From assembly GCF_039555335.1 (NCBI RefSeq), contig NC_092646.1, positions 58,010,946 through 58,074,945 of the forward strand: DNA of 64,000 bases. Reading direction: 5' to 3'. Origin of the DNA: Amphiura filiformis (Eukaryota). The notes below the pieces were generated by a model. The model was not told the origin of the DNA and did not search any database. It saw nothing but the letters and a program-made list of their open reading frames with translations. Shown here one piece after another: positions 17,753-63,625 of the stretch. How positions within the stretch are numbered: the first letter of the stretch is position 1; each line of letters opens with the position of its first letter. The position numbers were made by a program, and so were the translations under genes.

Positions 17753-17756
17753 GTTT

Positions 17757-21584: not shown

Positions 21585-22367
21585 TGCAGTAATTATAAAA
21601 CGGAAAAGGAAAAAGATGGGTTCAGAAAAAGTGATAAATAGAGATTAAAAAAAAAAAGCACACACACCAAAATCCGGTTTATTTTCCCCACCTGGGGTGT
21701 TTAACCGTACAGAGCTTGAACTTGAACAAAAAGAAGGGAGTAAAAATCAAAATATTGAACACTTCATGTTGCAAAAATGTCAACAGTAGCTGATGGCTAT
21801 GCACCGGCTTGGGCAGTCTTTTATAGTTCGCAGTTTTTGAAGGCACCCGTTTTCTTAACGGCGTGGTAGGTAGGACACCCTCGCCGATAGGAAGTTGAGC
21901 GATGGCGCACGACCAAAGTCACAAGGGTATGATTCCATTAGTCTGACACGATATGAGCTGTAAGTTATTCAGTCGTCATAACACACATAACATGCACAGT
22001 TGTAGACTAGACTGCTGCCCTCAGTCGTCAACCGTCTGGATTGACGACTGAGAAAACTACGTGGAAAAAAAGTGACGGATTTTGCAACAGGATTCCTGTG
22101 GCATAGAGCATGCGCAGTTGTGTCCAAATTGACCTTTTGACCGAGTTTGTTGTTTTTAGAAGTTCAGAGCGCGATCTTGTCACAGCGGCGCGGTACAGCG
22201 ACGCGATACACGGGCGCCGCTAGTCAGTCGCGCTACGGCGCACAACCAAAGTCGCATTGCATAGTTTTCGGAAGTCCGTCATGATATTGGCTGTAAGATA
22301 ATCAGTCGTCACTACGAAGCACAGTATGCGAAGTGTAGACGGCTGATTGGAATTAGTCTAGTTGTAG

Positions 22368-23268
22368 ACGACAAAGGTTGCAGTCTAGCAAAAAGGTAGA
22401 TTGGGCTAATCCACTTGTAATCCACACTCCCCCCATGGAGATTGTCTTCTACAGGGGGAGTATGAATTTCAAATGGAATGAACACATTAGGCAGCTCCAT
22501 TTGAATTTCATACACCCTCTGAGTAAGATTCAACCTGAATCTTCCACAGTGAGTTTCAAATAAAAGAAGTTAATGTGCTAATTCCAAATTTTTTGGGTTT
22601 TTTTAAATTGTCTGCAAGATACATGTACAGGTATGGCTCTCTGTACAAAAGACAGACGACTTAACGTCCCCTCCAAAGGATGGTGTACTTTCATGATTCA
22701 TTTACCCAATTCTAAATAAACCATGGGGAGAGCGGAAGTCTGAATTTAATCTACAGAATTTGCCAATTAATTTCAGACTTTTTTTTCCAAGTCAATATCC
22801 CAGCAAATCGCCACCGCCGGGTTGCAGTCTAGCAAAAAGGTAGATTGGGCTAATCCAGTTGTAATCCACACTCCCCCCATGGAGATTGTCTTCTACAGGG
22901 GGAGTATGAATTTCAAATGGAATGAACACATTAGGCAGCTCCATTTGAATTTCATACACCCTCTGAGTAAGATTCAACCTGAATCTTCCACAGTGAGTTT
23001 CAAATAAAAGAAGTTAATGTGCTAATTCCAAATTTTTTTTTGTTTGGAAATTGTCTGAGAGATACATGTACAGGTATGGCTCTCTGTACAAAAGACCGAC
23101 TACTTAACATCCCCTCCAAAGGATGGTGTACTTTCATGACTCATTTACCTAATTCTAAATGAAGCATGGGCAGAGTGTAAATCTGAATTCAATCTACAAT
23201 GGTTGTCAATGAATTTCATATATTTTTCCCCAAGTCAATATCCCAGCAAATCTCCACCACCAGGAATT
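22368..23268. repeat. Two tandem copies of a 445-bp composite unit (MITE-A copy plus SINE body)
   Basis: 22395-22560 and 22845-23003 are near-identical MITE-A copies, as shown by the duplicated ORFs MQSSKKVDWANP.../MNLTQRVYEIQ.... Confidence 0.8.
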
Positions 23269-23396: not shown

Positions 23397-25464
<2,068 letters not shown>

Positions 25465-25670
25465 CTGGTGTCTTGGTCGACCTACTATACTAGGGAAAAC
25501 TACCCTAGGTGCATCGTCACCAGCAAACCCTGCCTTGGTCGTATCAAGCCCAAGGTCAATAACCACCACTGCTACATCTTCATCGTCAGGTGATAGCTCT
25601 TCCATTACTGTTATAGGTGGTGGCGGTGGTGGTGCAGGAATGTCAGGTGGTATTCCAGAGGATGCCAAAT
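25465..25670 (-). CDS. Exon E5: proline-rich linker plus actin-like N-terminal segment ([69 protein letters not shown])
   Basis: [24 protein letters not shown] is the actin N-terminal signature. The donor CAG|gtaagt falls exactly at the conserved actin codon-41 intron position. The acceptor is tcttcatctag|. Confidence 0.6.
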
Positions 25671-25917
25671 CTAGATGAAGATAGAGAAATGGTGGCTGAA
25701 TTAAACTGATAAAAATTGTCAACTACAAAAGTGTAATTTTCATATGTGTATAGACCACTTGACATGTGACGTCATTGCCTGGCAGTATGCGCACAAATTA
25801 TGGCAAAATCTTTCATCCATGCTATGTTAAAAGTGCTAGATAAGTCTCTATTATTATTACCATCATTATCATTGACATTGTTATTACCATTATCATTATT
25901 ATCAAATCACACTTTAC

Positions 25918-28398: not shown

Positions 28399-28592
28399 GG
28401 GCTAGCTATAGTCCAGTTGAAATTATACATCCCCTATGGAAGACATTACCTTAATCTCCAACACAGGGGGTGTATGTTTTAAATGGAGTCACTCATTCAG
28501 GTAACCCCATTTGAAATTCACACTCCCTGTGTAGAAGATTAAGGTCATGTCTTCCATAGGGGGTGTATGGATTTCAGCTGGAATAGCCCAAT
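28399..28592. mobile_element. MITE family A, complete copy
   Basis: The arms gtccagttgaaattatacatcccctatggaagacattaccttaatct...agattaaggtcatgtcttccatagggggtgtatggatttcagctggaatagccc are inverted complements. Confidence 0.8.
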
Positions 28593-29175: not shown

Positions 29176-29235
29176 CTGTAAGAATTAAGTAATATATGAA
29201 GATATGATTCAATTGCCCCAGGTGGTGGCCGCATT

Positions 29236-32200
29236 GCATTCTCTAAATTCAGTAAATTTTCATCATCAACCGTGTAATTGAATGGGATTATTTTGAAATT
29301 TTAAAACGCTTGAAATATCACAAACAAATAGGCCTATGTTGATAAATAATATAAATACAAGCTAAAACCGTTGGGGTTCGATAATGAACCCCACAAAACT
29401 AAACGACTATATTGAAAATGCCATACGGCCGGGCGGTTTCACAAGTTGCCGGCTCGATCATGTCATCCGCCGCCTGAATTGCCCCTTCATGTCAGTAATC
29501 ACAGCAGCTGAAAGGACTATCCCATTATGCTTTGCGGTGTCATACAAACTGTACACAAAATCATCCCTCTCTTCAACTTTCAATCACTCGCTTAAATCTT
29601 TGTTTGAAAAGATATGACACTATCCATAGCTCTCAATATTTAAGCAGCTCTTACTTATGTTTTGTATGCATTTGCTATGGACCAAGCAGATCTACTGCAA
29701 TGCATGATGGGATACTCCCTTCAGCTGCTGTGGTCAGTAACCATGGACGAAAGAGTTAACAGACCGCATACAACCAGTCAAAGTTCCTGTGTATTGTATG
29801 CTGTGAGTTCTCGCATATTCATGAGGGCCGATTGTTCAATCGTGCCTTGTCTAACAATCACGCCAGCATTGCGTGCCTTCGCGTATACGCGATATAGCGA
29901 CAGAGCATTGCGTGCTTTAGCAATTACGCGTTATACCGTAAAAATAATCCAAAAGTGCGTAGCAGTCTCGCCTGTCGCATTTTATTGAACAATCGGCCCT
30001 CATTATCGGGTGATGCTGAGACTTTGACTGATTGTACGCAGTAATATCTCTTTTGTCCATTAAGTGAAGAGCTCTAGGGGCAGAGCCTAGGGCAGTGGCT
30101 AGAACAAGATATACAAAAAAAACCACAGCTATTGCTCAATTTAAGGGCTGGGGTATGAAGCGTTTGGACAGTATTTATTTTGGGACATCAGAGCATCAGA
30201 CATATCGCATTGCACTCTGAACACGAAGAATGTCATTCTGATATCAAATAATTTTGATTTTTTGAAATTCCCAATTTAATACACATTTTATGGCAAATCA
30301 TTAAAAATTGATATTTTTGATATTTAACAGTACTTGAAGTAAACTTTATAAATCTGATGATTTATACTTAAAAAGTGTATGTAGGTGGGATGAAAAGCCG
30401 ACGATCAATTGAAAATTTTGACCTTTCAGTATTGAAGATATGGATTTTTTTCCCAAAACACAAAAAAAAATTAGGTCTTTTTGGGAAAAAAATCCATATC
30501 TTCAATATGAAAGGTCAAAATTTTCAATTGACCATCCGCTTTTCCTTCCTGCTACATACACTTTAAGAATATATCATTAGATTTATATAATTTACTTCGA
30601 GGACTGTTATATATCAAAAATTTGAAAAATATCAAATTTTTATAATTTGTCATAAAATTTGTATTATATTGTGATTTTCAAAAATGAAAATTATTTGATA
30701 TCAGAAAGACATGCTTCAGATTCGAATGCAATTCGATAGGTCTGAGGTGCTCTCATGTCCCACAAAAAATACTGTCGAAACCCAATAAACGCTCATTTTA
30801 GATCCCTTAAGGGGGTACTACACCCATTGATTTTTTTTTGCATTTTTTTGCATTTTGTGAAGAAATTACAAAAAAAAACTGGACAAAGTGGTATGCAAAA
30901 TGAAGGGGCAAATCTTCTCGTTTTATTGGTGGCATCGGTATCAATGTAGCTTACATGCTTTTGAAGATAGAAGCCAAAAGGAGGTACATCACTGATGATT
31001 TAAATTCACTTCATTTTGGAAAGCTTACTATCAACGAATTTCGTTAAAATTTTGGATATGTGTTGCTAACACATTAGGGAAATAATGTTGATATGTAAAA
31101 TGGGAATAAGTGGTCCCTGATTTCTTTTATGACTTCATGAACTTGGTGCTCCACAACTATCAAAAAAACGAACCGGTTAAAATGCTTCTATTTTCAATGT
31201 CGAGCTATATTTTGTATTTTGAACTTGCAACACTATGTCACTGAAACTTAATTAAGCCATAGGTAACAGGTTACCACAACCACACTACAGCAATGTTGAA
31301 AAAGATTGTATTTTTTGTCACCTATACCACCATATTAGGTAGTTTTCCGTAAGCTTCATTTTTGTGATTTTGGTAACTATTTTATATTTATTTGCCCAAT
31401 CCAACTCAACTAGGCAATCTAAATTGTACTCACCATTTACATCCCAAGGTATTTTAGCATATCCACCTCACACATTTCCATTATATATCCAGTAACAGAC
31501 AAAATATCAAAATTGATGCCTCATTATGACATGTATGATATCACAGACTATCACATGTATTCAAAATTGATGCCTGAATTTGACCAGAACCAATTGACCT
31601 ATAACCTGACCTTTGATGACCTTATAGCCTTTTTTAATCTCTTTTCCTAACAACATATTATAGAAGATACATACATGGTGTAGTGTTAATTGTCTATGTG
31701 GAAGAGATTATTTAGGCCTATTTAATTTATTCAGTGTTATAATCAGTGAGTATATTTCTATAGATAGTATAACAAAGGATTTAATGTATTCTATTCATGT
31801 ATTCTACTTGGACATGTTCAATAGAATATATTATGGTTTGTTATGAAACATACATCTCAGTTACCAGGATACAGTAAACAACAAAATATATAGGGCTAAA
31901 ATGATTTTCTAAAATGGTCTAATACCACTTTGTATGTAGAGATATTTTATAAATTCAGGACATGAGATGATGAACATATAAATATACTTTATAAATTTGC
32001 AATAAAAAAAAGAAGATGGGTACTGATGAAAATCAGGGTATTAAATCGCCTTAAGCAATTATTTTTGATAAAATTTGTGAAATATGCCTTTTTCATCTGA
32101 ATTTTTACACATTATTCCATTTGCTCACTATATCATTTTCAATTTCCTTTGTGAGTAGACCTGAGATGTCATCACTGGACGTCACCTCGATACGCAAATC

Positions 32201-32575
32201 GTTACTGCGCACTTCACAGCTTTGAAATGCACAGTAGGGATGTTCACTAAACGATGTGCGTATCGGCGTGACATCAACTGTCGCAAAGGCTTATGGGATT
32301 TATCGAAAAAGAAAATTCCAGTTGAAATCCATACACCGCCCAGGCGGCGGATGACATGATTGAGCCGACAACTCGTGAAACCGCCCGGCCGTATGGCATT
32401 TTCCATATACTAGGTTAGTTTTGTGGGGTTCATTATCGAACCCCAGCGGTTTTAGCTTGTATTTATATTATTTATCAACATAGGCCTATTTGTTTGGGAT
32501 ATTTCAAGCGTTTTAAAATTTCAAAATAATCCCATTCAATTACACGGTTGACGATGAAAATTTACTGAATTTATG
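29236..32575. mobile_element. About 3.3-kb segment bounded by roughly 250-bp inverted duplications; foldback B (30141-30811) lies inside
   Basis: 29240-29480 on the plus strand matches 32300-32570 on the minus strand. The duplicated ORFs both encode ...ENAIRPGGFTSCRL(D/N)HVIRRL.... Confidence 0.55.
30141..30811. mobile_element. Foldback family B, second copy
   Basis: It is about 95% similar to the copy at 23397-24066. Confidence 0.8.
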
Positions 32576-32600
32576 GACTGCACGTCATACACCACCTGAC

Positions 32601-32876
32601 ACCGCCTATGAATTACATGACCTTAATCTTCCACAGGGGGTGTAGATTCAAATGGAGTCACCCATCCAGGTAACCCCATTTGAAATTCACACTCCCTGTG
32701 TGGGAGATTAAGGTCATGTCTTCCATAGGGGGTGTATGAATTTCAACTGGAATAGTCCATTTAAGAACAGACGACACTGAATGGGAGACTCCATTTGAAA
32801 TTCACACTCCCTGTGTGGGAGATTAAGGTCATGTCTTCCACAGGGGGTGTATGAATTTCAACTGGAATAGTCCATT
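32601..32876. mobile_element. MITE family A, 1.5 tandem copies
   Basis: Same consensus; the unit is duplicated internally. Confidence 0.75.
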
Positions 32877-33493
32877 CTAAAAAGGTTGAGAATGACTTCT
32901 CTAATATTTTTGCTACAAATCAAATCATATCGATCCATCAATATAGACTTTATTTCCATAAATCAAATTACATATCACGAGTAAAAAGACACCAAAAATT
33001 TCACTATTTTTGAAGAAAATATTTGACCAATTCAACCAAATATAGTTGATAACAGTCTTTTTTTTTTTTTTTTAAGTAAAATGCTAGAGTTAACAATAGC
33101 CCATGAGAATGACACAAGTCAAGAACTTATATAGGCACCTATGCACTATAAAAGACAACCACATGGGCCAGTCAGTGGTTCACAGCAGCTTAGGAACCAC
33201 AAGAGTGAAGGAGTACAGTAAAGCATCAGACAGACACAAGTAATAAGATGCTTATAGTGCATGAAGGATGGTGCACCATTGTCAGATATGTCTCTGACCA
33301 CTCCATCTGGTAGGCTATTGCTATGTCCGGTATATTCATCAATCTTCCGTGTGAATTTAGCAATATTCGGACTGAAACTGACAAAGCTAAAACATACATA
33401 CAACATATATCCCTATTTATAGTAAGATACAAGACAACAGTGATTGTGCAAGAGCAATCCAGTGGCCTTAATGAGGCTAGCAGCGACTGCCCT

Positions 33494-33771
33494 TGGGCTA
33501 TTCCAGTTGAATCCATACACCCCCTATGGAAGACATGACTTTAATCTTCCACACAGGGGGTATGAATTTCAAATGGGGCTACCTGAATGGGTGACTCCAG
33601 TTGAAATCCATACACCCCTATGGAAGACATGACATTAATCTTCCACACAGGGAGTGTGAATTTCAAATGGGGTTACCTGAATGGGTGAATCCATATGAAA
33701 TCTACACCCCCTGTGTGGATGATTATGGTTATGTCTTCCATAGGGTGTATGGATTTCAGTTGGAATAGCCC
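33494..33771. mobile_element. MITE family A, 1.5 copies
   Basis: It runs from gggctattccagttgaatccatacaccccctatggaagacatgac to catagggtgtatggatttcagttggaatagccc. Confidence 0.75.
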
Positions 33772-33936: not shown

Positions 33937-34329
33937 CTGAAAAAGGAAGGGAACAAAATTTAGGTTTTCCCCAATGAGGTAGAATCAAAGAGTACCAACT
34001 CTGCCACGTTTGCGTGTCGCTCATGGAGGCGGATTACTTCGCTATTCGCCCAGCAAACGATCCAAAGTGGGTGCTTGTTCACGTTCTGTATGTAACATGT
34101 TGTTCAAAAACACGATCCAAGCACTGTGTAGACAAACCTTAGTAACAAAAGATGCAAATTTGTTGTTCAATTTCGGCCCTCTCTCGATGAATGCAGGAGG
34201 TACGTTATCTACCCTCCATGATGAGCACCAAACCAAGATGGTGGACTTACATGTAGCATTACATATGGTACAATTTTGAGTCAGTAAACTTTAGTATCTT
34301 TGGTTTGTCCACATGTATAGGTCTATGTA

Positions 34330-37060
34330 TTTATACTTACTTCCAGGGTCTGTGATTGTCCAGGAGGACTCTTGGTTGGTTCCCATCCCATATAGGTATG
34401 TGTATCAATACTTACTTCTAGGGTCTGTGGTTGTCCAGGAGGACTCTTGGTTGGTTCCCATCCCATGTGGGTATGTATATTATCAATACTTACTTCTAGG
34501 GTCTGTGGTTGTCCAGGAGGACTCTTGGTTGGTTCCCATCCCATGTGGGTATGTATATTATCAATACTTACTTCTAGGGTCTGTGGTTGTCCAGAAGGAC
34601 TCTTGGTTGGTTCCCATCCCATATAGGTATGTGTATCAATACTTACTTCTAGGGTCTGTGGTTGTCCAGGAGGACTCTTCATTGGTTCCCATCCCATGTG
34701 GGTATGTATATTATCAATACTTACTTCCAGGGTCTGTGGCTGTCCAGGAGGACTCTTCGTTGGTTCCCATCCCATGTGGGTATGTATATTATCAATACTT
34801 ACTTCTAGGGTCTGTGGTGGTCCAGGAGGACTCTTCATTGGTTCCCATCCCATGTGGGTATGTATATTATCAATACTTACTTCTAGGGTCTGTGGTTGTC
34901 CAGGAGGACTCTTGGTTGGTTCCCATCCCATGTAGGTGTGTGTATCAATACTTACTTCTAGGGTCAGTGGTTGTCCAGGAGGACTCTTGGTTGGTTCCCA
35001 TCCCATGTAGGTATGTGTATCAATACTTACTTCTAGGGTCTGTGGTTGTCCAGGAGGACTCTTGGTTGGTTCCCATCCCATGTAGGTATGTGTATCAATA
35101 CTTACTTCTAGGGTCTGTGGTTGTCCAGGAGGACTCTTGGTTGGTTCCCATCCCATGTGGGTATGTATATTATCAATACTTACTTCTAGGGTCTGTGGTT
35201 GTCCAGGAGGACTCTTGGTTGGTTCCCATCCCATATAGGTATGTGTATCAATACTTACTTCTAGGGTCTGTGGTTGTCCAGGAGGACTCTTGGTTGGTTC
35301 CCATCCCATGTAGGTGTGTGTATCAATACTTACTTCTAGGGTCCGTGGTTGTCCAGGAGGACTCTTGGTTGGTTCCCATCCCATGTAGGTGTGTGTATCA
35401 ATACTTACTTCTAGGGTCTGTGGTTGTCCAGGAGGACTCTTCGTTGGTTCCCATCCCATGTGGGTATGTATATTATCAATACTTACTTCTAGGGTCTGTG
35501 GTTGTCCAGGAGGACTCTTCGTTGGTTCCCATCCCATATAGGTATGTGTATCAATACTTACTTCTAGGGTCTGTGGTTGTCCAGGAGGACTCTTGGTTGG
35601 TTCCCATCCCATGTAGGTATGTGTATCAATACTTACTTCTAGGGTCTGTGGTTGTCCAGGAGGACTCTTGGTTGGTTCCCATCCCATATAGGTATGTGTA
35701 TCAATACTTACTTCTAGGGTCTGTGGTTGTCCAGGAGGACTCTTCGTTGGTTCCCATCCCATGTGGGTATATGTATTTAGAGAATAAGCGATAGGAATTT
35801 TTATTTTGCCTATCCTCTACCGTGTGATAGGCGACAGGCAGGTCCAATATTTTGAGTAGTGGATGCCGCGCAGCCGGTATCCACTACGATAAAAATATTG
35901 GACCTGCCTGTCGCTCATCATAGGTAGAGGATAGGCAAAATAAAAATTCCTATCGCTTATTCTCATTCAGTTAAATATTATTTTAATAACTGTAAACAAT
36001 TTTTTTAAAGTAAAAACTAAGTTACCGTCATAAAAACTCCCCTCATTATAAAATGAACGAAACTGGTTTACAACTTCACGTATTCTCATTTTATGCAGTA
36101 CTGCTAGCGCGCTTTTGCGTATTCCGCACTAGTCTACGCATCCAGCGCGATACATACGCCGCATCTCTACACGCGTGTTACGCATTATCCAGACGCATGA
36201 TGACGTGGGGTCGCTCTCACGGCCTGATAGACGGCACCGAAATCATGCGATTGTCTAATCAGAAATGTGTCTACGAACTAGACCACTCCCACTGACTAAG
36301 AAATTATCAATACTTACTTCTAGGGTCAGTGGTTGTCCAGGAGGACTCTTGGTTGGTTCCCATCCCATATAGGTATGTGTATCAATACTTACTTCTAGGG
36401 TCTGTGGTTGTCCAGGAGGACTCTTGGTTGGTTCCCATCCCATATAGGTATGTGTATCAATACTTACTTCTAGGGTCTGTGGTTGTCCAGGAGGACTCTT
36501 CGTTGGTTCCCATCCCATATAGGTATGTGTATCAATACTTACTTCTAGGGTCTGTGGTTGTCCAGGAGGACTCTTCGTTGGTTCCCATCCCATGTAGGTA
36601 TGTGTATCAATACTTACTTCTAGGGTCTGTGGTTGTCCAGGAGGACTCTTCGTTGGTTCCCATCCCATGTAGGAGTGTGTATCAATACTTACTTCTAGGG
36701 TCTGTGGTTGTCCAGGAGGACTCTTCGTTGGTTCCCATCCCATGTAGGGGTGTGTATCAATACTTACTTCTAGGGTCTGTGGTTGTCCAGGAGGACTCTT
36801 CGTTGGTTCCCATCCCATGTAGGAGTGTGTATCAATACTTACTTCTAGGGTCTGTGGTTGTCCAGGAGGACTCTTGGTTGGTTCCCATCCCATGTGGGTA
36901 TGTATATTATCAATACTTACTTCTAGGGTATGTGGTTGTCCAGGAGGACTCTTTGTTGGTTCCCATCCCATATAGGTATGTGCATCAATACTTACTTCTA
37001 GGGTCTGTGGTTGTCCAGGAGGACTCTTGGTTGGTTCCCATCCCATATAAGTCAATGTAT
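34330..37060. repeat. Satellite B: 75/78-bp unit x about 30, in two blocks (34330-35785 and 36300-37060)
   Basis: The unit is tacttacttctagggtctgtggttgtccaggaggactcttggttggttcccatcccat(a/g)t(a/g)ggtatgt(gt)atcaa. ORFs are open on both strands (493 aa on the plus strand, 479 aa and 320 aa on the minus strand). Confidence 0.9.
35780..35964. repeat. 185-bp near-perfect palindrome interrupting satellite B
   Basis: agagaataagcgataggaatttttattttgcctatcctctac ... gtagaggataggcaaaataaaaattcctatcgcttattctc; centre at about 35872. Confidence 0.85.
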
Positions 37061-37237
37061 CAATCTCTTCTTTTCTCAGCAGCTCTTCTATGTCTACTGC
37101 TTTCATCTCCTTTTTGTCTTCGTCCTTCATAAATAACAATAAGAGTATGATAATAATGAAAACTATTATTATAGACAGTTTGTATTCTTTGGAGCATTTG
37201 CTTGATGATGAAAGCACTCATATGGCAACATGCAATG

Positions 37238-37424
37238 TGCTATTCCAGTTGAAATCTCTACACCCACTATGGAAGACATGACCTTAATCTCCCATACAGG
37301 GAGTGTGAATTTCAAATGGAGTTACCTGAATGAGTGACTCCATTTGAAATCGACACCCCCTGTATTTGAGATTAAGGTCATGCCTTCCGTGGGGAGGGGG
37401 GATCTCAACTGGAATAGCCCAATG
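37238..37424. mobile_element. MITE family A, complete copy
   Basis: Same consensus with terminal inverted repeats. Confidence 0.8.
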
Positions 37425-37477
37425 ATATTGTAAAATCAGGCTTTTGCATGCCCAATTGATACACCACAGTTACATGC

Positions 37478-40400
37478 ACACCAAGTTTTCTTATGGCCAG
37501 TTAGTGAGTGGCCTATAGCAGAGTTACTACAGAGCTACTCCAAGCTGGAGTAGCTCTGCAGTATCTTCAGAACCACTGCATAGCTATTCCACTATAGAGT
37601 ACCGAAGTGATGACGTCACAAGAAACTTTTTTTGCATTTCAGCGTTTTGAATACCATGTATCAGTGGAGCATGATGAAAAATATCCACAGTCCAAATTTG
37701 GTGGGAATCGGATCATGAGGGCCCGAGATATGGTCGCATGAATACCTAATTAGTGTAAATTGGCCTGGTTCCAAACAGTTATGAGACCAGGCCAATTTAG
37801 AGGGCGCAACACTAAATCACTCCGCATTTTATGTAACAACAAAATTCGGCTAATATAGTCCATAGTGAATATGAGATTGCAGCGACCATATCTACCGACA
37901 TGTTCACTTTAAATCACTCAATATCGGCTCATATGAATTCGACAAGTGTCTTTAATGATAACATGCAGATAAAAACTGAACAATTGATCTCAAAAGCAAT
38001 TCTCTGTGGCGGATTAAGAGAAAACCCGATTTTGAAATGTGAGTGGTGAGTTTAGCATATTTTTAGCTCTTTTTTTTTGCACCGAAAATTAAGAAAAAAG
38101 TCAATGGTCATCGATATATGCCGACAAAAGTTTTGGAATCTAGAGAAACAGAGCTTTAATTTGATACCAAATTTATTTTGCCAAGTATTGCAGGGACGCC
38201 AGAAATGGCGCTTGAAGTAGGCGAAATCACACGTTATCCTATGGGACGCTGAATTAGTGCTGCTCCCCCTTGTAACGGCCGTCATTATGAACGCGTTCCT
38301 TTTACATTCTTGGCAAGCAAAATAAGAGACGCGCTTCACAAAATGTGTTCTATTTCCATCATGATGATAAACAAGTATTACAAAAAGTCATCCTCATGAA
38401 AAATTATTGGAAAAAACACTTTATTGGCCGAGTAGGCGCCTTCAAAGTCAAGAAATGCATCCAAAAATCCTCAAAAAGGTTCATAAATGGATTTTAAGGT
38501 TAATAGACATTATTAATCTGCATGAAGCCGTTTTGCTGAATATTCAGTAGGCCTACTCAAAAAGATCGCAATTGTTACTACTGGAAGGGGGGTATTTATA
38601 CTTGAGACTCAGTAATAAATGATTTCCAAAAAAAATGGCAACACTGATAATCTAGAAAAGAAATTAATCTTGGTTCAAAGACGTGCTCAAATTGTCGTCT
38701 GTCACTAATTTTGTGAGTTTTGTATAAACTTTCGCATATTGGAGGAAAAGTCGAAATATTCGATTTTCGGCATTTCGGCACTGATCTTTAAAACATCATT
38801 TCTCTTGAACGGAATGTCATGAGAGCCATGAAATCTTCGGTGTTGAGCTTCAAATTTTCTCTAGTTTACTTAATGAGTAATAAATGTGGATTTTGAAAAC
38901 TTTTAACACCTTATAAGAGGCGCAACACTAAATCACTCCGCATTTTATGTAACAACGAAATTCGCTAATATAGTCCATAGTGAATATGAGATTGCAGCGA
39001 CCATATCTACCGACATGTTCACTTTAAATCACTCAATATCGGCTCATATGAATTCGACAAGTGTCTTTAATGATAACATGCAGATAAAAACTGAACAATT
39101 GATCTCAAAAGCAATTCTCTGTGGCGGATTAAGAGAAAACCCGATTTTGAAATGTGAGTGGTGAGTTTAGCATATTTTTAGCTCTTTTTTTTTGCACCGC
39201 AAATTAGCGAAAAAAGTCAATGGTCATCGATATATGCCGACAAAAGTTTTGGAATCTAGAGAAACAGAGCTTTAATTTGATACCAAATTTATTTTGCCAA
39301 GTATTGCAGGGACGCCAGAAATGGCGCTTGAAGTAGGCGAAATCACACGTTATCCTATGGGGCGCTGAATTAGTGCTGCGCCCCTTGTAACGGCCGTCAT
39401 TATGAACGCGTTCCTTTTACATTCTTCGCAAGCAAAATAAGAGACGCGCTTCACAAAATGTGTTCTATTTCCATCATGATGATAAACAAATATTACAAAA
39501 AGTCATCCTCATGAAAAATTATTGGAAAAAACACTTTATTGGCCGAGTAGGCGCCTTCAAAGTCAAGAAATGCGCCCAAAATCCTCAAAAGGTTCATAAA
39601 TGGATTTTAAGGTTAATAGACATTGTTAATCTGCATGAAGCCGTTTTGCTGAATATTCGGTAGGCCTACGCAAAAAGTCCGTAATTGTTACTACTGGAAG
39701 GGGGGCGTATTTATACTTGAGACTCAGTAATAAATGATTTCCAAAAAAATGGCAACACTGATAATCTAGAAAAGAAATTAATCTTGGTTCAAAGGCGTTG
39801 CTCAAATTGTCGTCTGTCACTAATTTTGTGAGTTTTGTATAAACTTTGATATTGGAGGAAAAGTCGAAATAGTCGATTTTCGGCATTTCGGCACTGATCT
39901 TTAAAACATCATTTCTCTTGAACGGAATGTCGCAGAGACATGAAATCTTCGGTGTTGAGCTTCAAATTTTCTCTAGTTTACTTAATGAGTAATAAATGTG
40001 GATTTTGAAAACTTTTAACACCTTATAAGAGGGCGCAACACTAAATCACTCCGCATTTTATGTAACAACGAAATTGCTAATATAGTCCATAGTGAATATG
40101 AGATTGCAGCGACCATATCTACCGACATGTTCACTTTAAATCACTCAATATCGGCTCATATGAATTCGACAAGTGTCTTTAATGATAACATGCAGATAAA
40201 AACTGAACAATTGATCTCAAAAGCAATTCTCTGTGGCGGATTAAGAGAAAACCCGATTTTGAAATGTGAGTGGTGAGTTTAGTATATTTTTAGCTCTTTT
40301 TTTTTTTGCACCGCAAATTAGCGAAAAAAAGTCAATGGTCATCGATATATGCCGACAAAAGTTTTGGAATCTAGAGAAACAGAGCTTTAATTTGATACCA

Positions 40401-41866
40401 AATTTATTTTGCCAAGTATTGCGGGGACGCCAGAAATGGCGCTTGAAGTAGGCCGAAATCACACGTTATCCTATAGGGCGCTGAATTAGTGCTGCGCCCC
40501 CTTGTAACGGCCGTCATTATGAACGCGTTCCTTTTACATTCTTCGCGCAAAATAAGAGACGCGCGCTTCACAAAATGTGTTCTATTTCCATCATGATGAT
40601 AAACAAATATTACAAAAAGTCATCCTCATGAAAAATTATTGGAAAAAACACTTTATTGGCCGAGTAGGCGCCTTCAAAGTCAAGAAATGCGTCCAAAAAT
40701 CCTCAAAAAGGTTCATAAATGGATTTTAAGGTTAATAGACATTATTAATCTGCATGAAGCCGTTTTGCTGAATATTCAGTAGGCCTACTCAAAATATCGC
40801 AATTGTTACTACTGGAACGGGGGGGTGGGGTTATTTATACTTGAGACTCAGTAATAAATGATTTCCAAAAAAAATGGCAACACTGATAATCTAGAAAAGA
40901 AATTAATCTTGGTTCAAAGCGTGCTCAAATTGTCGTCTGTCACTAATTTTGTGAGTTTTGTATAAGCTTTCGCATATTGGAGGAAAAGTCGACATATTCG
41001 ATTTTCGGCATTTCGGCACTGATCTTTAAAACATCATTTCTCTTGAACGGAATGTCGCAGAGCCATGAAATCTTCGGTGTTGAGCTTCAAATTTTCTCTA
41101 GTTTACTTAATGAGTAATAAATGTGGATTTTGAAAACTTTTAACACCTTATAAGAGGGCGCAACACTAAATCACTCCGCATTTTATGTAACAACGAAATT
41201 CGGCTAATATAGTCCATAGTGAATATGAGATTGCAGCGACCATATCTACCGACATGTTCACTTTAAATCACTCAATATCGGCTCATATGAATTGACAAGT
41301 GTCTTTAATGATAACATGCAGATAAAAACTGAACAATTGATCTCAAAAGCAATTCTCTGTGGCGGATTAAGAGAAAACCCGATTTTGAAATGTGAGTGGT
41401 GAGTTTAGCATATTTTTAGCTCTTTTTTTTTTCCTCAAATTAGCGAAAAAAAGTCAATGGTCATCGATATATGCCGACAAAAGTTTTGGAATCTAGAGAA
41501 ACAGAGCTTTAATTTGATACCAAATTTATTTTGCCAAGTATTGCAGGGACGCCAGAAATGGCGCTTGAAGTAGGCCGAAATCACACGTTATCCTATGGGG
41601 CGCTGAATTAGTGCTGCGCCCCCTTTACACTGATTTCAATGGGGCTAATTAGGTATTCATGCAGCCAGATCTCGGGCCCTCATGATCCGATTCCCACCAA
41701 ATTTGGACTGTGGATGTTTTTCATCCTGTTCTCATGAAAATGCTGAAATGCAAAAAAAAAAATTTTATGACGTCACACTTCGGTACTCTATGCAGTAGCT
41801 CATAGTGGAATAGCTGTAACTCTGCTATGGGCCACCCACTAACTGGCCATAAGAATATAGTTGTGT
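37478..41866. mobile_element. Large element with about 330-bp terminal inverted repeats enclosing 3.4 copies of a 1.1-kb tandem repeat
   Basis: 37478-37800 is the reverse complement of 41620-41866 (ggccagttagtgagtggcc...gtaactctgctatgg). Internal units start at about 37800, 38920, 40022 and 41155. Confidence 0.75.
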
Positions 41867-41899
41867 ATTACAAGAACTGGTGCCACCATCGGCATATTG

Positions 41900-42300
41900 T
41901 GATAAAAATTTTGTTTGCAAATACAACCAATAATGTGATTGCAACATACAGCTTTAAAATAGGATATATTCCTCCCAGCAGAGGTCAGGCTCATGGTAGA
42001 CAATTAAGAAACAATGCCAATCTCTCCCAACTCCGTGCCTGTACTGACAGGTTTGCTAGGAGTCCAGTTCCTTACTTTGTTAGGCTGCTAAACAGCAACC
42101 CATCCTAATCATGGTTCATCCCTTGCATTGCTTTGCTGTGGATCCTGTTTCTCTTTGGCTGCCATGAGTTCTGACCTCATTTGTTGTTTATATTTATTTA
42201 TTATGTTGTTATATATATATTGCTTTTCTCATTGTTGTTTTTTGCTTATACTTTGTGTACAATAATGTAATTCGGCCTCCGGGCCGCGATTTTGTGCCAA
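41900..42300 (+). mobile_element. LINE 3' fragment
   Basis: The ORF ends ...RACTDRFARSPVPYFVRLLNSNPS, the same family tail motif as the fragment at 10.4 kb. An AT-rich tail follows. Confidence 0.45.
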
Positions 42301-42399
42301 TAAAATCATATCAAAATCATATCATATCATATATTCACAAGTTTTGTAGCTCAAATGTCAAAATGTCCAAAATTAGACTTAATTGGAACAGATCACAAT

Positions 42400-42705
42400 A
42401 AATGTAACCTGCTACCACGAAATGAGCATAAAGTCGCAAGTTGCTATTTTCAAGACATCCTGGCTACGTATACTGCGTTGATATTCTTTGTTTCACACAC
42501 ACCTGTTCAAGCCAATAGCATGTCTGTATGTCATTGGTGAATGGAGGCACATGGGGCCATTCACAAAGGACATACTACTGGCTTGTACAGGTGCGTGGCA
42601 AATTAAGAACATCAACTCAGCAGCCAGGATGTCTCAAAACTAGCATCTTGCAACTTTACACTCATTCTGTGGTAGCAGGTCACATATTTGATTCCATACC
42701 TTGTC
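42400..42705. mobile_element. Small TIR element (family C; TIR CAAATATGTGACCTGCTACCAC) beginning exactly at the donor of the exon at 42700
   Basis: The inverted arms lie at 42408-42480 and 42625-42700. A partial paralogue lies at 20090-20292. Confidence 0.5.
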
Positions 42706-44149: not shown

Positions 44150-46621
44150 GCAATTTAACTCCAAACTCAGAATAAGAATATTTGGGTGATTTGGCCTCAA
44201 TGTGAGGTAGAATACACAATGTGTTACACTTGGACCACAATCTGGTCATGCACCTTTAACTCCAAACTCAGAATACGAATGTTTGGGTGATTGGCCTCAA
44301 TGTGAGGTAGAATACACAATGTGTTACACTTGGACCACAATCTGGTCATGCACCTTTAACTCCAAACTCAGAATACGAATGTTTGGGTGATTGGCCTCAA
44401 TGTGAGGTAGAATACACAATGTGTTACACTTGGATCACAATCTGGTCATGCACCTTTAAGGGTGATTGGCCTCAATGTGAGGTAGAATACACAATGTGTT
44501 ACACTTGGACCACAATCTGGTCATGCACCTTTAACTCCAAACTCAGAATAAGAATGTTTGGGTGATTGGCCTCAATGTGAGGTAGAATACACAATGTGTT
44601 ACACTTGGATCACAATCTGGTCATGCACCTTTAAGGGTGATTGGCCTCAATGTGAGGTAGAATACACAATGTGTTACACTTGGACCACAATCTGGTCATG
44701 CACCTTTAACTCCAAATTCAGAATAAGAATATTTGGGTGATTGGCCTCAATGTGAGGTAGAATACACAATGTGTTACACTTGGACCACAATCTGGTCATG
44801 CACCTTTAACTCCAAACTCAGAATATGAATGTTTGGGTGATTGGCCTCAATGTGAGGTAGAATACACAATGTGTTACACTTGGACCACAATCTGGTCATG
44901 CACCTTTAACTCCAAACTCAGAATAAGAATGTTTGGGTGATTGGCCTCAATATGAGGTTGAATACACAATGTGTTACACTTGGACCACAATCTGGTCATG
45001 CACCTTTAACTCCAAACTCAGAATAAGAATGTTTGGGTGATTGGCCTCAATGTGAGGTAGAATACACAATGTGTTACACTTGGACCACAATCTGGTCATG
45101 CACCTTTAACTCCAAACTCAGAATAAGAATGTTTGGGTGATTGGCCTCTCTGTGAGGTAGAATACACAATGTGTTAACAACACTTGGACCACAATCTGGT
45201 CATGCACCTTTAACTCCAAACTCAGAATATGAATGTTTGGGTGATTGGCCTCAATGTGAGGTAGAATACACAATGTGTTACACTTGGACCACAATCTGGT
45301 CATGCACCTTTAACTCCAAACTCAGAATAAGAATGTTTGGGTGATTGGCCTCAATGTGAGGTAGAATACACAATGTGTTACACTTGGATCACAATCTGGT
45401 CATGCACCTTTAAGGGTGATTGGCCTCAATGTGAGGTAGAATACACAATGTGTTACACTTGGACCACAATCTGGTCATGCACCTTTAACTCCAAACTCAG
45501 AATAAGAATGTTTGGGTGATTGGCCTCAATGTGAGGTAGAATACACAATGTGTAACACTTGGATCACAATCTGGTCATGCACCTTTAAGGGTGATTGGCC
45601 TCAATGTGAGGTAGAATACACAATGTGTTACACTTGGACCACAATCTGGTCATGCACCTTTAACTCCAAACTCAGAATAAGAATGTTTGGGTGATTGGCC
45701 TCAATGTGAGGTAGAATACACAATGTGTTACACTTGGATCACAATCTGGTCATGCACCTTTAAGGGTGATTGGCCTCAATGTGAGGTAGAATACACAATG
45801 TGTTACACTTGGACCACAATCTGGTCATGCACCTTTAACTCCAAACTCAGAATATGAATGTTTGGGTGATTGGCCTCAATGTGAGGTAGAATACACAATG
45901 TGTTACACTTGGACCACAATCTGGTCATGCACCTTTAACTCCAAACTCAGAATATGAATGTTTGGGTGATTGGCCTCAATGTGAGGTAGAATACACAATG
46001 TGTTACACTTGGACCACAATCTGGTCATGCACCTTTAACTCCAAACTCAGAATACGAATGTTTGGGTGATTGGCCTCAATGTGAGGTAGAATACACAATG
46101 TGTTACACTTGGATCACAATCTGGTCATGCACCTTTAAGGGTGATTGGCCTCAATGTGAGGTAGAATACACAATGTGTTACACTTGGACCACAATCTGGT
46201 CATGCACCTTTAACTCCAAACTCAGAATAAGAATGTTTGGGTGATTGGCCTCAATGTGAGGTAGAATACACAATGTGTTACACTTGGACCACAATCTGGT
46301 CATGCACCTTTAACTCCAAACTCAGAATAAGAATGTTTGGGTGATTGGCCTCAATGTGAGGTAGAATACACAATGTGTTACACTTGGATCACAATCTGGT
46401 CATGCACCTTTAAGGGTGATTGGCCTCAATGTGAGGTAGAATACACAATGTGTTACACTTGGACCACAATCTGGTCATGCACCTTTAACTCCAAACTCAG
46501 AATAAGAATGTTTGGGTGATTGGCCTCAATGTGAGGTAGAATACACAATGTGTTACACTTGGATCACAATCTGGTCATGCACCTTTAAGGGTGATTGGCC
46601 TCAATGTGAGGTAGAATACAC
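44150..46621. repeat. Satellite A, block 1: about 28 copies of alternating 100-bp and 75-bp units
   Basis: The unit is gggtgattggcctcaatgtgaggtagaatacacaatgtgttacacttggaccacaatctggtcatgcaccttta[actccaaactcagaataagaatgttt]. Confidence 0.9.
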
Positions 46622-48423
46622 AGCGGTTTTCCACTTTTTAAGCCCAGTACTGGGCCAGTGTTGGGCAAGATCTAGCGGCACGGATTGAGCTATAAAAATG
46701 CCCCAATACTAGGCGGCAAAAGTGACACTTTTATTGGGCCAATTCTAGCGTACTCGCAATTGCCCAGTTCAAGCCACAAGTACTGGCCCAGTTCTAGTAG
46801 TACTACGGGCTGTCCCTAAAGTTGCCTGAAATTAAAATTATTTTCATGGGACGCCGTGTTTGGTTATCATGTTTATTGTATTTATTCTCGGAACCAGTAC
46901 TATTTACCCAAAAAGCTAACATTTAGCAGTATGAATAAGCAGTATTATAGACGTGTGAATTGGTTTGTGAGTTTGGCACAGCTTTAACTACTGAGTGAAG
47001 TTCAACACCGTGGTGTTTTATGTAACGGTAAGTAAATCATGACATTTTTTAATGAGTATGATACATGGATAAGCCGCAGTATGCATGTCATTGTATGCAT
47101 GTATCAATACTATCATTGTATCAATGTATGCATGGTATGCATAGTCACTGTAGTAGACTTGTAGTATAGCATGGCTAAGCCTAGAGCTTTTTGATTGTTT
47201 TATTTTTGTTTCAATTTCTCTAACCAGTTGTGTATGGCACCGTATAAATATCGTCATGATCATTAAGCTTAATCATTGTCAGGTAGGCCTAAAGTATTAT
47301 TCAGATTTCCTTTTACAAATTAAGCGTACTGCTAGCTGTCCAGCGCATCTTATTTTGCACATGGTCCAATGCACACGCTTGACGTCGCGCACGTATATGC
47401 GATGGTTAATTTGTAAAAGGAAATCTGAATATTACTTTAGTGTTCATACATACGTGTTATATTGGTCGATAGGCGGGCATAAACAACATTTATGCCCTGC
47501 TTTCTGGTCGTAAACAAGCCGCGTCAGAACCGATGAACGCCATGAGTAGGATATCTGCAGCGTATGCTTATGAAAGCTATTTACATAAAGCGCGAATGAT
47601 GTCTGCGATGTTCGTGGCGTCCAAACACGGTGGACTGAGCAAGTAAACGTTTTCTTACAATTAGCAATGGAAAAACTTTTAAAAAGGATTAGAAATTGAT
47701 AGTTTTTAGACTAAAATGACGATATTTTTTAGTTGTGGAGGAAAATAACAGCACTCAGAATGTTGTGTATGTATGAACGGGGTTCATTCATATATTTTCA
47801 GGACTAAACGTTGTTTATGCCCTCGGGCATAAACAATTGTTTAGTCATGAAAATATATGAATGAACCCCTAAATCATCAGTGACAGTGGCGTGCCATGCC
47901 CCCCACTTTTGTTGGTCATTCGGGGGAAAATGTTAAAAACGTCAAAATTTGCTGCTAATCAGACTCCATTCGGGGAACTTAACAACCTGCCCACCCCCCC
48001 CCCCCCCCCACCCCACTTTCAATGTGCTGGCCACGCCACTGGTCATCATAGGTAGATGGGAGAAATTTTGTCCCCGGAATTTTGTTTGCACAAACCATGA
48101 CTGGGCCGCTATTTAAAACGCTATACTGGCAAAAAGTGCCAAAGAACTACATGTACGGTAGTGTAGGCCTACCATTCTACTATCTTTCTTCAACTCATTT
48201 GACTCGTAACAATTTGATAGAGAGAGACTGGGGAGTGCGCGCATTTGTGAGCACAGTGCATTTTTTTATGTCGAGCATATCTACATGTAGGCATTAAACC
48301 ATGTTAACAGCTGAAATCTGGGCGATAATGCTGACGAAACTTCGACCAGGCACAATTAGTGACCTGGTGAACGAAGGGGCCGCCGTGGATAGCTGGTCGG
48401 GGATTTTTTGCAGGACAGTCAAG

Positions 48424-55100: not shown

Positions 55101-56299
55101 ATTGAAGAGTTTGCTTCATCCATGTTCAAGGGCCAAAGTACATGCAGGAAAAAAGTCATATTTACTTTTGGCCCTTGAACATGGATAAAGCCTTGTAGGT
55201 GTAGACTTTATATTGAAGGGTTTGCTTCATCCATATTCAGGGGCCAAATGTACATATGACAAAATATTTATACTACCCTAAAATCAGAAAGGTTCTACAT
55301 GAAATAAACTTGAGACTGAAAAGAAGACTGAAAAGAAGCATGATCATTTATTATGCACCAAACATGAAGGTACATGTTTTATACATTTATGTCACTCTAG
55401 GATTTATGACACCTAATGATGATATTAATGGTTCAATCCTAAATACTGAAGGTCAAATCTATTAAAAAGCAGATTTAAGATAAGATGTGAAAATTGCAAT
55501 TTTGTTCAAACCTAATACAAGGTTGATTTTTAAATTTCAATTATATTTGAAATAACTGCACTTCATTGAGCGAGTCTCAGTCTCCATTATTTTTTTAGGT
55601 CAAGTAAAATAACATGTATATTGTCCCTTCCCTCATCCATTTTTGGCAATTTGTTCAAGCTAGTGGTAGTAATACCGTCAAAAATATCAGGGCCTCCACA
55701 TTTTTATGTGTTGACAAAGCCTTTGCAATTGAAATTTTACACAGAAATGAATAGTAAATTTGTAACAAATAATAACTGCTTCCAGACAATATACATGTTA
55801 TTTATTTTACTTGGCCTTAATATGTAATCTTCCAGGACTTATCAGGCAAATATAATAACCCTGGAATTACGGGCTATTGGGCTATGTGATTGCAAATTGT
55901 TTTTATTAATGCCTTTTTTAATAAAAATTTGGGCCAAAAAAAAACCTGTTTATATTTTTTTTGGGGGGATTTTCTCCAAAAAATAGTATTTTTGCCTAAA
56001 TTTGACCTCACAGATGAATCCATCAAGTTATGAGGATGAGGCCCAAAAATGTTCATAATTCCTGGGTTAAAACCACCCATTAACTCTTTCAATGACATTG
56101 TAAAAAACAAAAAGGGGGTTCAAGGCTTATTTGGGGATTTTTGTACGGGGATGTACCACACTTTCAGATGCTGATTCTACCTACTTCTTGCTGTTTTTAC
56201 CACCCCGTCAGTATACTAATTGCCTTGGGCGCTTTTAGGGGCACTTGTGGTGGGGTCTCCCCTGTCAGTCCGAAACACCGTCAATCCGAACCCCTGTCA

Positions 56300-58320
56300 G
56301 TTCGAAAGTCATTTCAGAAAGAAACAAATTTTGCATAATTTCAGAAAAGGAACTTTTTACAAAGACGTCATTTCAGAAAAAGGCGACTTTTTTAAAAGGA
56401 TGTCATTTCAGTAAAAGTGATTTTTTTAAAAGATGTCATTTGAGAAAAGGCAACTTTTAGTCAGAAAAAAAAATATATTTAAAGACATTTAAAAAATTGG
56501 TGACTTTTTATTTAAAAAGAAGTCATTTCAGAAAAAAGCGACTCTTTTTAAAGACGTCATTCCAGAAAAAAAGGTGCTTTTAAAAGACATTATTTTAGAA
56601 AAGGTGACTTAAAAAGAAGACATCATTTCAGAAAAAGGCGACTTTTTCAAAAAGAGACGTCATTTCAGAAAAAAGGTTGACTTTTTAAAAAGATGTCATT
56701 TGAGAAAAAAGGCTACATTTTATAAAAAGATGTCATTTCATAAAAGGCGATTTTTTTTTTTAAATACGCCATTTTAGAAAAGGCAACTTTTTCGGAAAGA
56801 TGTCATTTTTAAAAAGACGTCATTTCAGAAAAAGGTGACCTTTTTAAAAAGACGTGATTTCAGAAAAAGCGACCTTTTTTAAAAAGACATTTCAGAAAAA
56901 GGTGGCTTTTAAAAAGATGTCATTTGAGAAAAAGGCTACTTTTTATTTTAAAAGATGTCATTTCAGAAAAAGGCGACTTTAAAAGACATTTCAGAAAAAG
57001 GCAGCTGTTTTAAAAAGAGATTTCGTAAAAAAGCGACTTTTTAAAAAGACATTTCAGAAAAAAATGTGACTTTTTATAAAGACGCCATTTCAGAAAAATG
57101 TGACTTTAAAAACGTCATTTTAGGGAAAAGGCTCACTTTTTTAAAAACGTCATTTCAGAAAAAAAGGCGACTTTTTTAAAAAGATGTCATTTCAGAAAAA
57201 GCAACCTTTTTAAAGACATTTCAGAAAAAAGGGGACTTTTTAAAAAGATGTCATTTGAAAAAAAGGCTACTTTTTATTTTAAAAGATGTCATTTGAAAAA
57301 AAGGCTACTTTTTATTTTAAAAGATGTCATTTCAGAAAAAGGCGACTTTTTTAAAGATATTTTAGAAAATGGCGGCTATTTTAAAAAGACATTTCAGACC
57401 TTTTGTAAAAAGACATTTCAGAAAAAGGTAACTTTTAAAAGACATTTCAGAAAAAGGCGGCTGTTTTAAAAAAAGACATTTAGAAAAAACGCGACTTTTT
57501 AAAGACGTCATTTAAGGAAAAAAACAGGAAAAAACAACTTTTAAAGACGTCATTTCAGAAAACGGTGACTTTTAAAAGACATTTCAGAAAAAGGCAGCTG
57601 TTTTAAAAAGACATTTCATAAAAAACTACTTTTAAAAAAAACATTTCGGAAAAAAAATGTGACTTTTTATAAAGACGCCATTTCAGAAAAAAAGGTGACT
57701 TTTTTAAAAAGATGTCATTTCAGAAAAAGCGACCTTTTTAAAGACATTTCAGAAAAAAGGTGACTTTTTTAAAAAGATGTCATTTGAAAAAAAGGCTACT
57801 TTGTATTTTAAAAGATGTCATTTGAAAAAAAGGCTACTTTATATTTTATAGATGTCATATCAGAAAAAAGCAACTTTTTTAAAAAGATGTCATTTCAGAA
57901 AAAATTTGACTTTTTTTAAAGACGTCATGTCAGGAAAAAAAAGCAGACATTTCAGAAAGGCGACTTTTTATAAAGACGCCATTTCAGAAAAATGTCACTT
58001 TTTAAAGACGTCATTTTAGGGAAAAGGCGACTTTTTAAAAAAGATGTCATTTCAGAAAAGAAGAAACTTTTTAAAAAAGACGTCATTTCAGAAAAAGGCG
58101 ACTTTTTTTAAAAAGTCGTCATTTCAGAAAAAAGGCAACTTCAGTAAAAAGACGTCATTTCAGAAAAAAAAGTGATTTTTTCAAAGATATTCTTTAAAAA
58201 TGCGACTTTTTAAAGACGTTATTTCAGGGCAAAGGCAATTTTTTTAAAGACATCATTTCAGAAAAAGGAGACTTTTTTAAAGATGTCATTTCAGAAAACA
58301 AAAAGCAAGACTTCCTTTTT
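56300..58320. repeat. Satellite C: about 35-bp minisatellite (aaagacgtcatttcagaaaaaggcgacttttttaa) x about 55
   Basis: The periodicity is clear. Most units carry GACGTCA, which is 7 of 8 positions of the CRE palindrome TGACGTCA. Confidence 0.85.
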
Positions 58321-63437: not shown

Positions 63438-63625
63438 CTATTCCAGTTGAGATCCATACACCCCCGTATGGAAGATATGGCCTTAATCTTCCACAAAGGA
63501 GGTGTAGATTTCAAATGGAGCTATCAATTCAGGTAACCCCATTTGAAATTCACACTCCCTGTGTGGAAGATTCAAGTTATGTCTTCCATATGGGGCGTCT
63601 GTATTTCATCTGGAACAGCACAATG
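63438..63625. mobile_element. MITE family A, complete copy, immediately 5' of the vWA exon
   Basis: Same consensus. Confidence 0.8.

Follow-up and report, generated by a model that had tools for sequence, protein, structure and literature searches.

The locus and its features

The DNA analysed here (the window) is a stretch of 64,000 nucleotides from Amphiura filiformis (NCBI RefSeq assembly GCF_039555335.1, contig NC_092646.1, positions 58,010,946 to 58,074,945 of the forward strand). It is eukaryotic DNA with a GC content of 38%, and it carries unusually many tandem arrays and palindromic repeats. The subject of this work is a 4.4-kb structure in which two inverted arms enclose a tandem array. 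The original prediction, made from the sequence alone, placed this structure at 37478-41866 and described it as a foldback-type element, with terminal inverted repeats (TIRs) of about 330 bp around a 1.1-kb unit repeated 3.4 times. The best boundaries of the whole structure are 37475-41867, within 1-3 bp of that span. We distinguish in it an outer hairpin element, O, and an inner element, I, which lies between the two arms of O and is composed of modules A and spacers B. The features of the locus are as follows; TSD stands for target-site duplication, and p and q are the left and right TIRs of I.

37470-37474: left candidate TSD of O, TTACA (boundary scan)
37475-37769: left arm of O, 295 nt, with TGACGTCA at 37611-37618 and a 54-bp segment found on the left only; 92.8% identity to the right arm
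37770-37785: apical loop of O, 16 nt, TCCAAACAGTTATGAG (DNA folds)
37786-37799: innermost 14 nt of the right arm of O, ACCAGGCCAATTTA; the last 4 nt, TTTA (37796-37799), are the left candidate TSD of I
37800-41623, plus strand: inner element I, 3,824 bp, with the order A1-B1-A2-B2-A3-B3-A4 (self-BLAST, repeat finder and module comparison)
37800-37819, plus strand: p, GAGGGCGCAACACTAAATCA; it also opens the other A modules (38917, 40029, 41154)
37800-38269, 38917-39384, 40029-40501 and 41154-41623: A modules, 468-473 bp, 98.5-99.6% identical
38270-38916, 39385-40028 and 40502-41153: B spacers, 644-652 bp, 98.0-99.1% identical
41604-41623, minus strand: q, reverse complement GGGGGCGCAGCACTAATTCA; it also closes the other A modules (38250-38269, 39366-39384, 40482-40501)
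41624-41627: right candidate TSD of I, TTTA (left flank ...CCAATTTA, right flank TTTACACT...)
41628-41867: outer 240 nt of the right arm of O, with TGACGTCA at 41768-41775 (arm alignments and hairpin fold)
41868-41872: right candidate TSD of O, TTACA (boundary scan)

The inner element

The array consists of a 1.1-kb unit repeated 3.43 times head to tail at 37799-41625, in agreement with the predicted 3.4 copies. Its period is 1112-1126 bp according to both self-BLAST and the repeat finder; Tandem Repeats Finder (TRF) is blind to it only on account of a maximum period of 500. Identity between the copies is 97-99% for whole units and 98.0-99.6% when the modules are compared one by one. Four A modules of about 470 bp alternate with three B spacers of about 647 bp. 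The odd copy number is accounted for by this arrangement, since the array holds one A more than n full units.

All four A modules open with p and close with q. The sequence of p and the reverse complement of q agree at 17 of 20 positions, a similarity for which the probability by chance at fixed ends is about 3e-8 (binomial estimate), and the tandem similarity ends no more than 1-2 bp from p and q. Element I has the organization expected of a composite: TIRs are present at both of its ends, and a complete A stands on both sides of every B. The tetranucleotide TTTA directly adjoins I at both ends, as a direct repeat of only 4 bp. A possible extension of the inverted similarity past p and q was rejected (score of 34, compared with 32 ± 6). 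The spacer B shows no similarity beyond that of shuffled sequences to A or to either arm, and an origin of B from decayed right and left arms, by a rolling-circle or dimer mechanism, was rejected on these grounds.

The outer hairpin element

Around the array, the two sides of the structure share collinear inverted blocks. From the outer ends inwards, these are 37488-37527/41816-41855 (95% identity), 37582-37595/41802-41815 (14 of 14 positions), 37594-37753/41645-41791 (82.6% identity with gaps counted, E=6e-43), the block AGTGTAAA at 37752-59/41624-31 and, innermost, 37799-37819/41604-41624 (18 of 21 positions). The predicted length of about 330 bp holds on the left side, where the repeat measures 325 bp (37475-37799); the right side is shorter, at 240-264 bp. 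The palindrome TGACGTCA occurs once per arm, as had been noticed. There are four such sites in the window (0.53 expected), and the other two (25767 and 28812) sit in unrelated sequence; TGACGTCA was therefore rejected as a marker of related elements.

When positions 37800-41627 are excised in silico, the arms join as one continuous 565-bp palindrome (37475-37799 plus 41628-41867), with the junction ...CTAATTAGTGTAAATTGGCCTGGT-TCCAAACAGTTATGAG-ACCAGGCCAATTTACACTG.... The apical stem is a perfect 18 bp, AGTGTAAATTGGCCTGGT/ACCAGGCCAATTTACACT, around the 16-nt loop; it is continuous with both arms, and is completed by 37786-37799 together with 41628-41631. In DNA folding, the reconstructed O (565 nt) forms a single hairpin from its first bases, with an energy of -223.7 kcal/mol compared with -60.3 ± 4.7 kcal/mol for shuffled sequences (z = -35). 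Closure of the hairpin also accounts for a 40-bp perfect palindrome that seemed peculiar to the left arm (37756-37799): once the array is removed, it is the apex of the reconstructed O.

Alignment of the two arms (295 and 254 nt) yields 219 matched and 17 mismatched positions and 14 gap events, or 92.8% identity over aligned bases. Their inner part is better conserved than their extreme ends. The 54-bp segment specific to the left arm contains a palindrome of its own (37522-37566), with a local hairpin of -16.1 kcal/mol (z -5.0). A search for tandem subrepeats (TRF, minimum score 30) returned only an 11-bp trace of 1.9 copies in the left arm and none in the right arm. [quoted passage not shown]

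A scan of all plausible boundaries identified TTACA, on both sides of O, as the only exact direct repeat of at least 4 bp at the limit of arm similarity. Its position at both ends is suggestive of a TSD. TA, TTAA and 8-bp options were not found in the boundary scan, and no direct repeat of at least 8 bp was found at any plausible boundary with one mismatch allowed, the 5-bp TTACA being the best. Neither flank (37445-37474 and 41868-42400) has a second copy in the window, which also contains no paralogous empty site of O. The only nearby repeat is an unrelated palindromic MITE of about 190 bp at 37231-37424.

The same structure might be read as one 4.4-kb non-autonomous DNA transposon with long TIRs, of about 345 and 264 bp, whose middle domain was tandemly amplified; p and q would be the innermost 20 bp of these TIRs, and the 40-bp palindrome would have been inserted later in the left arm. 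The inverted blocks are indeed collinear from the outer ends via AGTGTAAA into p and q, a candidate 5-bp TSD is present at the outer ends, the sequence lacks coding capacity, and internal arrays are known from other TIR elements. However, a single element requires an ad hoc perfect palindrome of 40 bp, in the left arm only, that happens to extend the flanking TAAA. The complete p...q pair in every unit is left unexplained, and there is no source for the spacer B, which is unrelated to the arms or to A. We regard such a single-element origin as possible but doubtful.

Tandem arrays and inverted repeats are also classic sites of assembly error, and the structure might be an artefact of this kind, caused by a long read that is chimeric and palindromic or by a tandem repeat expanded in error. 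Fold-back artefacts have near-identical contiguous arms, whereas the arms observed here are 92.8% identical, with 14 indel events and a 41-nt difference in length. The unit copies, moreover, carry distinct substitutions and indels. An artefactual origin thus appears extremely unlikely.

CpG content and relative age

The observed/expected ratio (o/e) of CpG is 1.18 in the unit (44 CpG in 1,112 bp) and 0.40 in the two arms together (10 in 565 bp). It is 0.50 in the whole window, and 0.48 ± 0.24 in 1.1-kb windows outside the element. The TpG/CpA excess in the arms of O is 1.33. The divergence is 7.2%, with 14 indel events, between the arms, and 0.4-2% between the modules. The only other region of the window that is not depleted in CpG is an AT-rich minisatellite of 32-38 bp at 56201-58298 (27-30% GC, CpG o/e 1.0-1.2); between 56.2 and 57.9 kb, this second tandem array alone reaches ratios comparable to that of the unit.

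Because the CpG ratios differ so sharply, the arms and the array had different mutational histories. The arms have the appearance of sequence long resident in a genome that depletes CpG. For the array there are two options, youth or shielding from methylation, and either state is hard to reconcile with ends and a middle that have always travelled together; its history differs from that of the arms, and it is probably younger. For a single 4.4-kb element, the threefold contrast between arms and interior is unexplained unless the interior escapes methylation.

Coding capacity and RNA content

No convincing ORF was found in the 4.4 kb, as originally reported: the longest stop-to-stop frame has 111 amino acids, is not conserved between the copies and has no Pfam or protein match. 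All ORF pieces from the six frames of both arms and of one unit, joined into a query of 1,367 amino acids, were compared with 5.8 billion proteins, which gave 1,483 candidates sharing words and none at E <= 0.01. Nothing in the element reaches the gathering score in Rfam; there are just two sub-threshold matches resembling microRNAs, both on the left-arm palindrome. ARAGORN detected no tRNA in the element.

These results bear on the possibility that the locus is functional, either as an array of non-coding RNA genes or as a CpG-rich regulatory array with cyclic-AMP response element (CRE) sites, TGACGTCA, in flanking boundary elements. The unit is CpG-rich relative to the genome and TGACGTCA is kept in both arms, two points in favour of such a function. 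An RNA gene array was nevertheless rejected, given the lack of Rfam matches at the gathering score and of tRNAs called by ARAGORN. Nothing related is seen in other organisms at the level of protein ORFs, the GC content is only 36%, and the indels that distinguish the copies show no hint of constraint. A functional tandem locus is therefore very unlikely.

Proposed history of the locus

We favour the view that the locus is a nested pair of non-coding class II (DNA transposon) relics, with a TIR-bounded tandem composite, I, inside an older hairpin MITE-like element, O; we hold it with evenly balanced confidence. It draws on the anatomy of the locus: the hairpin closes, p and q bound every module, and direct repeats adjoin I (TTTA) and O (TTACA). 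Arms and array also contrast in age and composition, neither coding sequence nor a known RNA is present, and hairpin elements of this size are dispersed in the same genome. From this structural evidence we infer that O and I have transposed, in which order the events took place and that I originated as a composite.

In the proposed history, O would be a decayed palindromic MITE, mobilized in trans by a transposase that acted at both of its ends, which are of identical type, and would have inserted at TTACA. It appears to be old: 7% divergence and many indels separate its arms, whose CpG depletion equals that of their surroundings. In the most economical course of events, two copies of A, a small TIR element of about 470 bp, would have come to bracket the 647-bp passenger B. 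If the outermost p and q were then used together, A-B-A would have moved as a composite 'macrotransposon'; alternatively, A-B-A may have been made by a tandem duplication mediated by transposon ends. Element I would have landed later than O, at TTTA, 14 bp to the right of the apical loop of O, and unequal crossing-over between the direct A repeats could have led to A(BA)3. The nested arrangement predicts an empty O site, ...CAGTTACAAGAAC... (TTACA), and an array-free O, ...GGCCAATTTACACTG... (TTTA).

More tentatively, A might be a live or recently live MITE of about 470 bp, a pair of which captured the 647-bp passenger, transposed with it as a miniature macrotransposon into the apex of another hairpin MITE and was then expanded by unequal exchange. 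The locus as a whole is a possible early stage of a satellite repeat.

Several points weigh against the nested arrangement. Over the combinations of boundaries scanned for O, chance alone should yield about 1.4 exact 5-mers, which makes TTACA weak evidence when taken alone, and the outermost 13 bp of the arms match at only 8 of 13 positions. An alternative view of the TTTA flanks of I is that they prolong the inverted repeat (TAAA/TTTA), which leaves room for a single element. The internal A modules have no TSD of their own, a situation that a composite origin allows and from which it gains no support. The high CpG content of the array could reflect a lack of methylation rather than youth. Changes of the CpG type represent 8 of the 49 differences between copies and are in part alignment noise near indels; they were not used as evidence. 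Finally, further copies are missing from the sequences searched. With both arms and one unit as queries and the element masked, BLASTN (word size 7, E up to 10) detected only chance matches of 11-26 nt in the remaining 59.5 kb of the window. Exact 24-mers of the arm core and of the arm terminus gave no match in JGI metagenome contigs, GTDB genomes or IMG/VR, and six 20-22-mers from the locus gave none in full-text papers.

The absence of another copy from the 59.5 kb and from the searched collections would be natural for a non-mobile local structure, that is, a macrosatellite flanked by an inverted segmental duplication (resulting, for example, from fold-back or template-switch errors of replication) that involved no transposition. 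Such an origin also accords with the better conservation of the inner parts of the arms relative to their extreme ends, and both candidate TSDs are short enough to have arisen by chance. Yet the arms close as a complete hairpin with a short loop, like the dispersed palindromic families of the same window, and direct repeats adjoin both boundaries. The arms are about 7% diverged and so do not result from a recent replication accident, and the CpG contrast speaks for an array that is foreign to them. We therefore consider a purely local duplication unlikely.

If the nested arrangement is correct, a single locus records the landing site provided by a hairpin MITE, a composite with MITE ends and an early tandem expansion with its CpGs intact, and may serve as a worked example for the question of how transposons become satellites (PMC12628747, PMC5932611). 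If A was in addition a MITE that captured its passenger, the locus would be a case caught in the act: the first stage, not yet decayed at its CpGs, of a pair of TIR elements becoming a satellite with a 1.1-kb unit. Should A + B arrays, or solo copies of A with TTTA-type TSDs, occur elsewhere, this would be a clean animal case of satellite birth driven by a composite transposon. The component mechanisms have all been documented already; no general principle is changed, and there is no sign of a host function. For annotators, the locus is a warning that what pass for long 'TIRs' on either side of an array may be one palindromic MITE split in two; automated tools would miscall this case as one 4.4-kb long-TIR family.

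Other repeats and genes in the window

Hairpin repeats of the same class as O are dispersed in this genome, as indicated by two families and a further palindrome present in the window. The first is a MITE-like palindromic family of about 190 bp, with at least seven copies in the 64 kb (70-91% identity), one of which lies 50 bp upstream of O. Its sites, some of them adjacent or nested (32.6-33.8 kb), are 37231-37424, 28409-28592, 32599-32876, 33493-33771, 63438-63627, 6920-7038, 22410-22998 and 17751-17808. The second is a 670-bp palindromic element found twice (23397-24066 and 30141-30811, 94.7% identical), with ends TTAA|GGGCT...ATCCC|TTAA, a flank pattern of the piggyBac/Kolobok type.

The further palindrome, near-perfect and 533 bp long, at 14971-15503 (arms 91.6% identical, nested arms of 87 nt 98% identical) has TTAA on both sides and is present in a single copy in the window. 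A 284-bp palindrome at 42402-42685, with core arms of 64 nt that are 84% identical, is situated about 530 bp downstream of the 4.4-kb structure and has a partial relative at 20212-20296. There is a second long inverted-repeat structure at 29219-32598. Its arms of 258 nt are 93% identical, stand 2.9 kb apart and have ends starting with CAGGTGGTG. This structure lacks an internal tandem array and a clear TSD, is not similar to the O/I locus, and harbours one copy of the 670-bp palindrome (30141-30811).

Further tandem arrays are present in the window. A 75-bp minisatellite at 34316-37064 has about 36 copies and a higher-order period of 303 bp, and ORFs of 320-493 amino acids are open on both of its strands. 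The minus-strand ORF 36255-37217, which overlies this minisatellite, starts with a hydrophobic, lysine/glutamate-rich segment that is not part of the repeats. Three arrays (44154-46622, 59528-60929 and 61551-62383) belong to one satellite family of 75/100/175 bp, with units up to 99% identical, and lie on both sides of an exon coding for a MYND finger.

Traces of genes were also recognized. ORFs similar to the N-terminal exon of actin (Pfam Actin, 5.5e-12) are present on the minus strand at 20885-21592 and 25429-25722; one of them runs in frame into a proline-rich region resembling FG repeats (Nucleoporin_FG, below the cut-off). A 170-bp tandem array of 8.7 copies (24062-25538) is found between the two. 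They may represent an unusual actin-fusion gene or a pseudogene. An isolated Hsp70 fragment on the minus strand (7490-7864; Pfam HSP70 positions 443-538, E = 6e-31) is probably an exon or a piece of a processed pseudogene. A tRNA-like sequence on the plus strand (17618-17690) has an Rfam tRNA score of 35.1 bits, above the gathering score, is not called by ARAGORN and adjoins partial copies of the small palindromic MITE; it may be the head of a short interspersed nuclear element (SINE) or a degenerate tRNA gene. In addition to the MYND finger exon, the window holds a VWA/PARP4-like gene fragment and a retrotransposon-like ORF. The best matches of the VWA/PARP4-like exon are 71-73% identical ORFs on ENA metagenome-assembly contigs.

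Comparison with known systems

Foldback elements (FB of Drosophila, Tetris of D. virilis and Galileo-like elements) have very long TIRs, of up to 1.7 kb, made of tandem subrepeats, a variable middle domain and Mutator-like TSDs of 8-10 bp (PMC4079207). The present locus resembles them in being non-coding, in having inverted arms that can snap back (295/254 nt, hairpin z -35) and in its tie to tandem repeats and satellite birth. In FB and Tetris, however, the repeats are inside the TIRs and the middle is non-repetitive, whereas here the arms are free of subrepeats and the array lies between them with ends of its own. The candidate TSD is 5 bp, rather than 8-10 bp. Because its arms contain no tandem subrepeats, and because an 8-10-bp TSD is lacking as well, the locus is not a Foldback element in the strict sense. 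The anatomy originally described was right, and a transposon-derived origin remains the best reading; the assignment to one Foldback-like element finds only partial support, as the arms and the array do not look like one element.

The 5-bp direct repeat flanking O is reminiscent of Transib. Transib elements are classically defined by 5-bp TSDs and prefer GC-rich targets. Their ends open with a CACAATG heptamer in which CAC is invariant, and a 23-bp spacer separates this heptamer from an A-rich nonamer (PMC1131882). The ends of O are TGCACACC and TACACAAC. With TTACA as the TSD, O starts with TGC/TAC; CAC is 2 bp away from the TSD, and shifting the ends 2 bp inwards to CAC loses the TSD. A nonamer is lacking at +30, and Transib was rejected for O on the sequence of the ends. 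The target of O is also AT-rich. Ginger2 can make TSDs of 4-5 bp (PMC10045372). The PIF/Harbinger group was rejected as well: the TTA...TAA at the ends of O is inverted, not direct, and is therefore no TSD. Helitrons and Helentrons have no long TIRs; they begin with 5' TC, finish with a 3' hairpin and a CTRR end, and insert at AT or TT without a TSD. A Helitron or Helentron with a central array does not agree with arms of at least 250 bp that dominate the structure, nor with the right end (...TATAGTTGTGTA), where CTRR is lacking.

The hairpin MITEs of the same window (23397-24066 and 30141-30811; 14971-15503; 37231-37424 and its relatives) share their architecture and size class with O. They have no sequence similarity to it, and those neighbours that were checked are flanked by TTAA, whereas O, of which one copy was seen, is flanked by TTACA.

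MITEs and other non-autonomous TIR elements with expanding internal arrays have been described, for example miDNA4 and Xstir of Xenopus, DTC84 of Donax and pearl of bivalves (PMC12628747). As in these elements, inverted ends here enclose an array that could change in copy number and is a possible seed for a satellite. The internal monomers of array-bearing MITEs are about 100-200 bp long. To our knowledge, these monomers do not each hold a full copy of the inverted ends of the element. The unit of the present array differs in both respects, being 1.1 kb long and containing a complete module bounded by p...q together with a spacer.

The proposed history has precedents among macrotransposons. 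In maize, a pair of Tam3L elements caused macrotransposition at the Wc locus; tandem amplification followed, and the repeats are punctuated by transposon sequence (10.1101/082677). The scale is different, 28 kb there as opposed to 1.1 kb here, where the process is deduced from structure. Ac transposition with reversed ends is reported to produce tandem direct duplications (PMC3744419). The systems of Wc/Tam3L and of alternative transposition of Ac/Ds have in common with the history proposed here two like elements that flank a passenger, outermost ends that are used together and expansion by unequal crossing-over (10.1101/082677, PMC3744419, PMC9910405). Dimers of transposable elements have likewise been recognized as seeds of arrays (PMC5932611).

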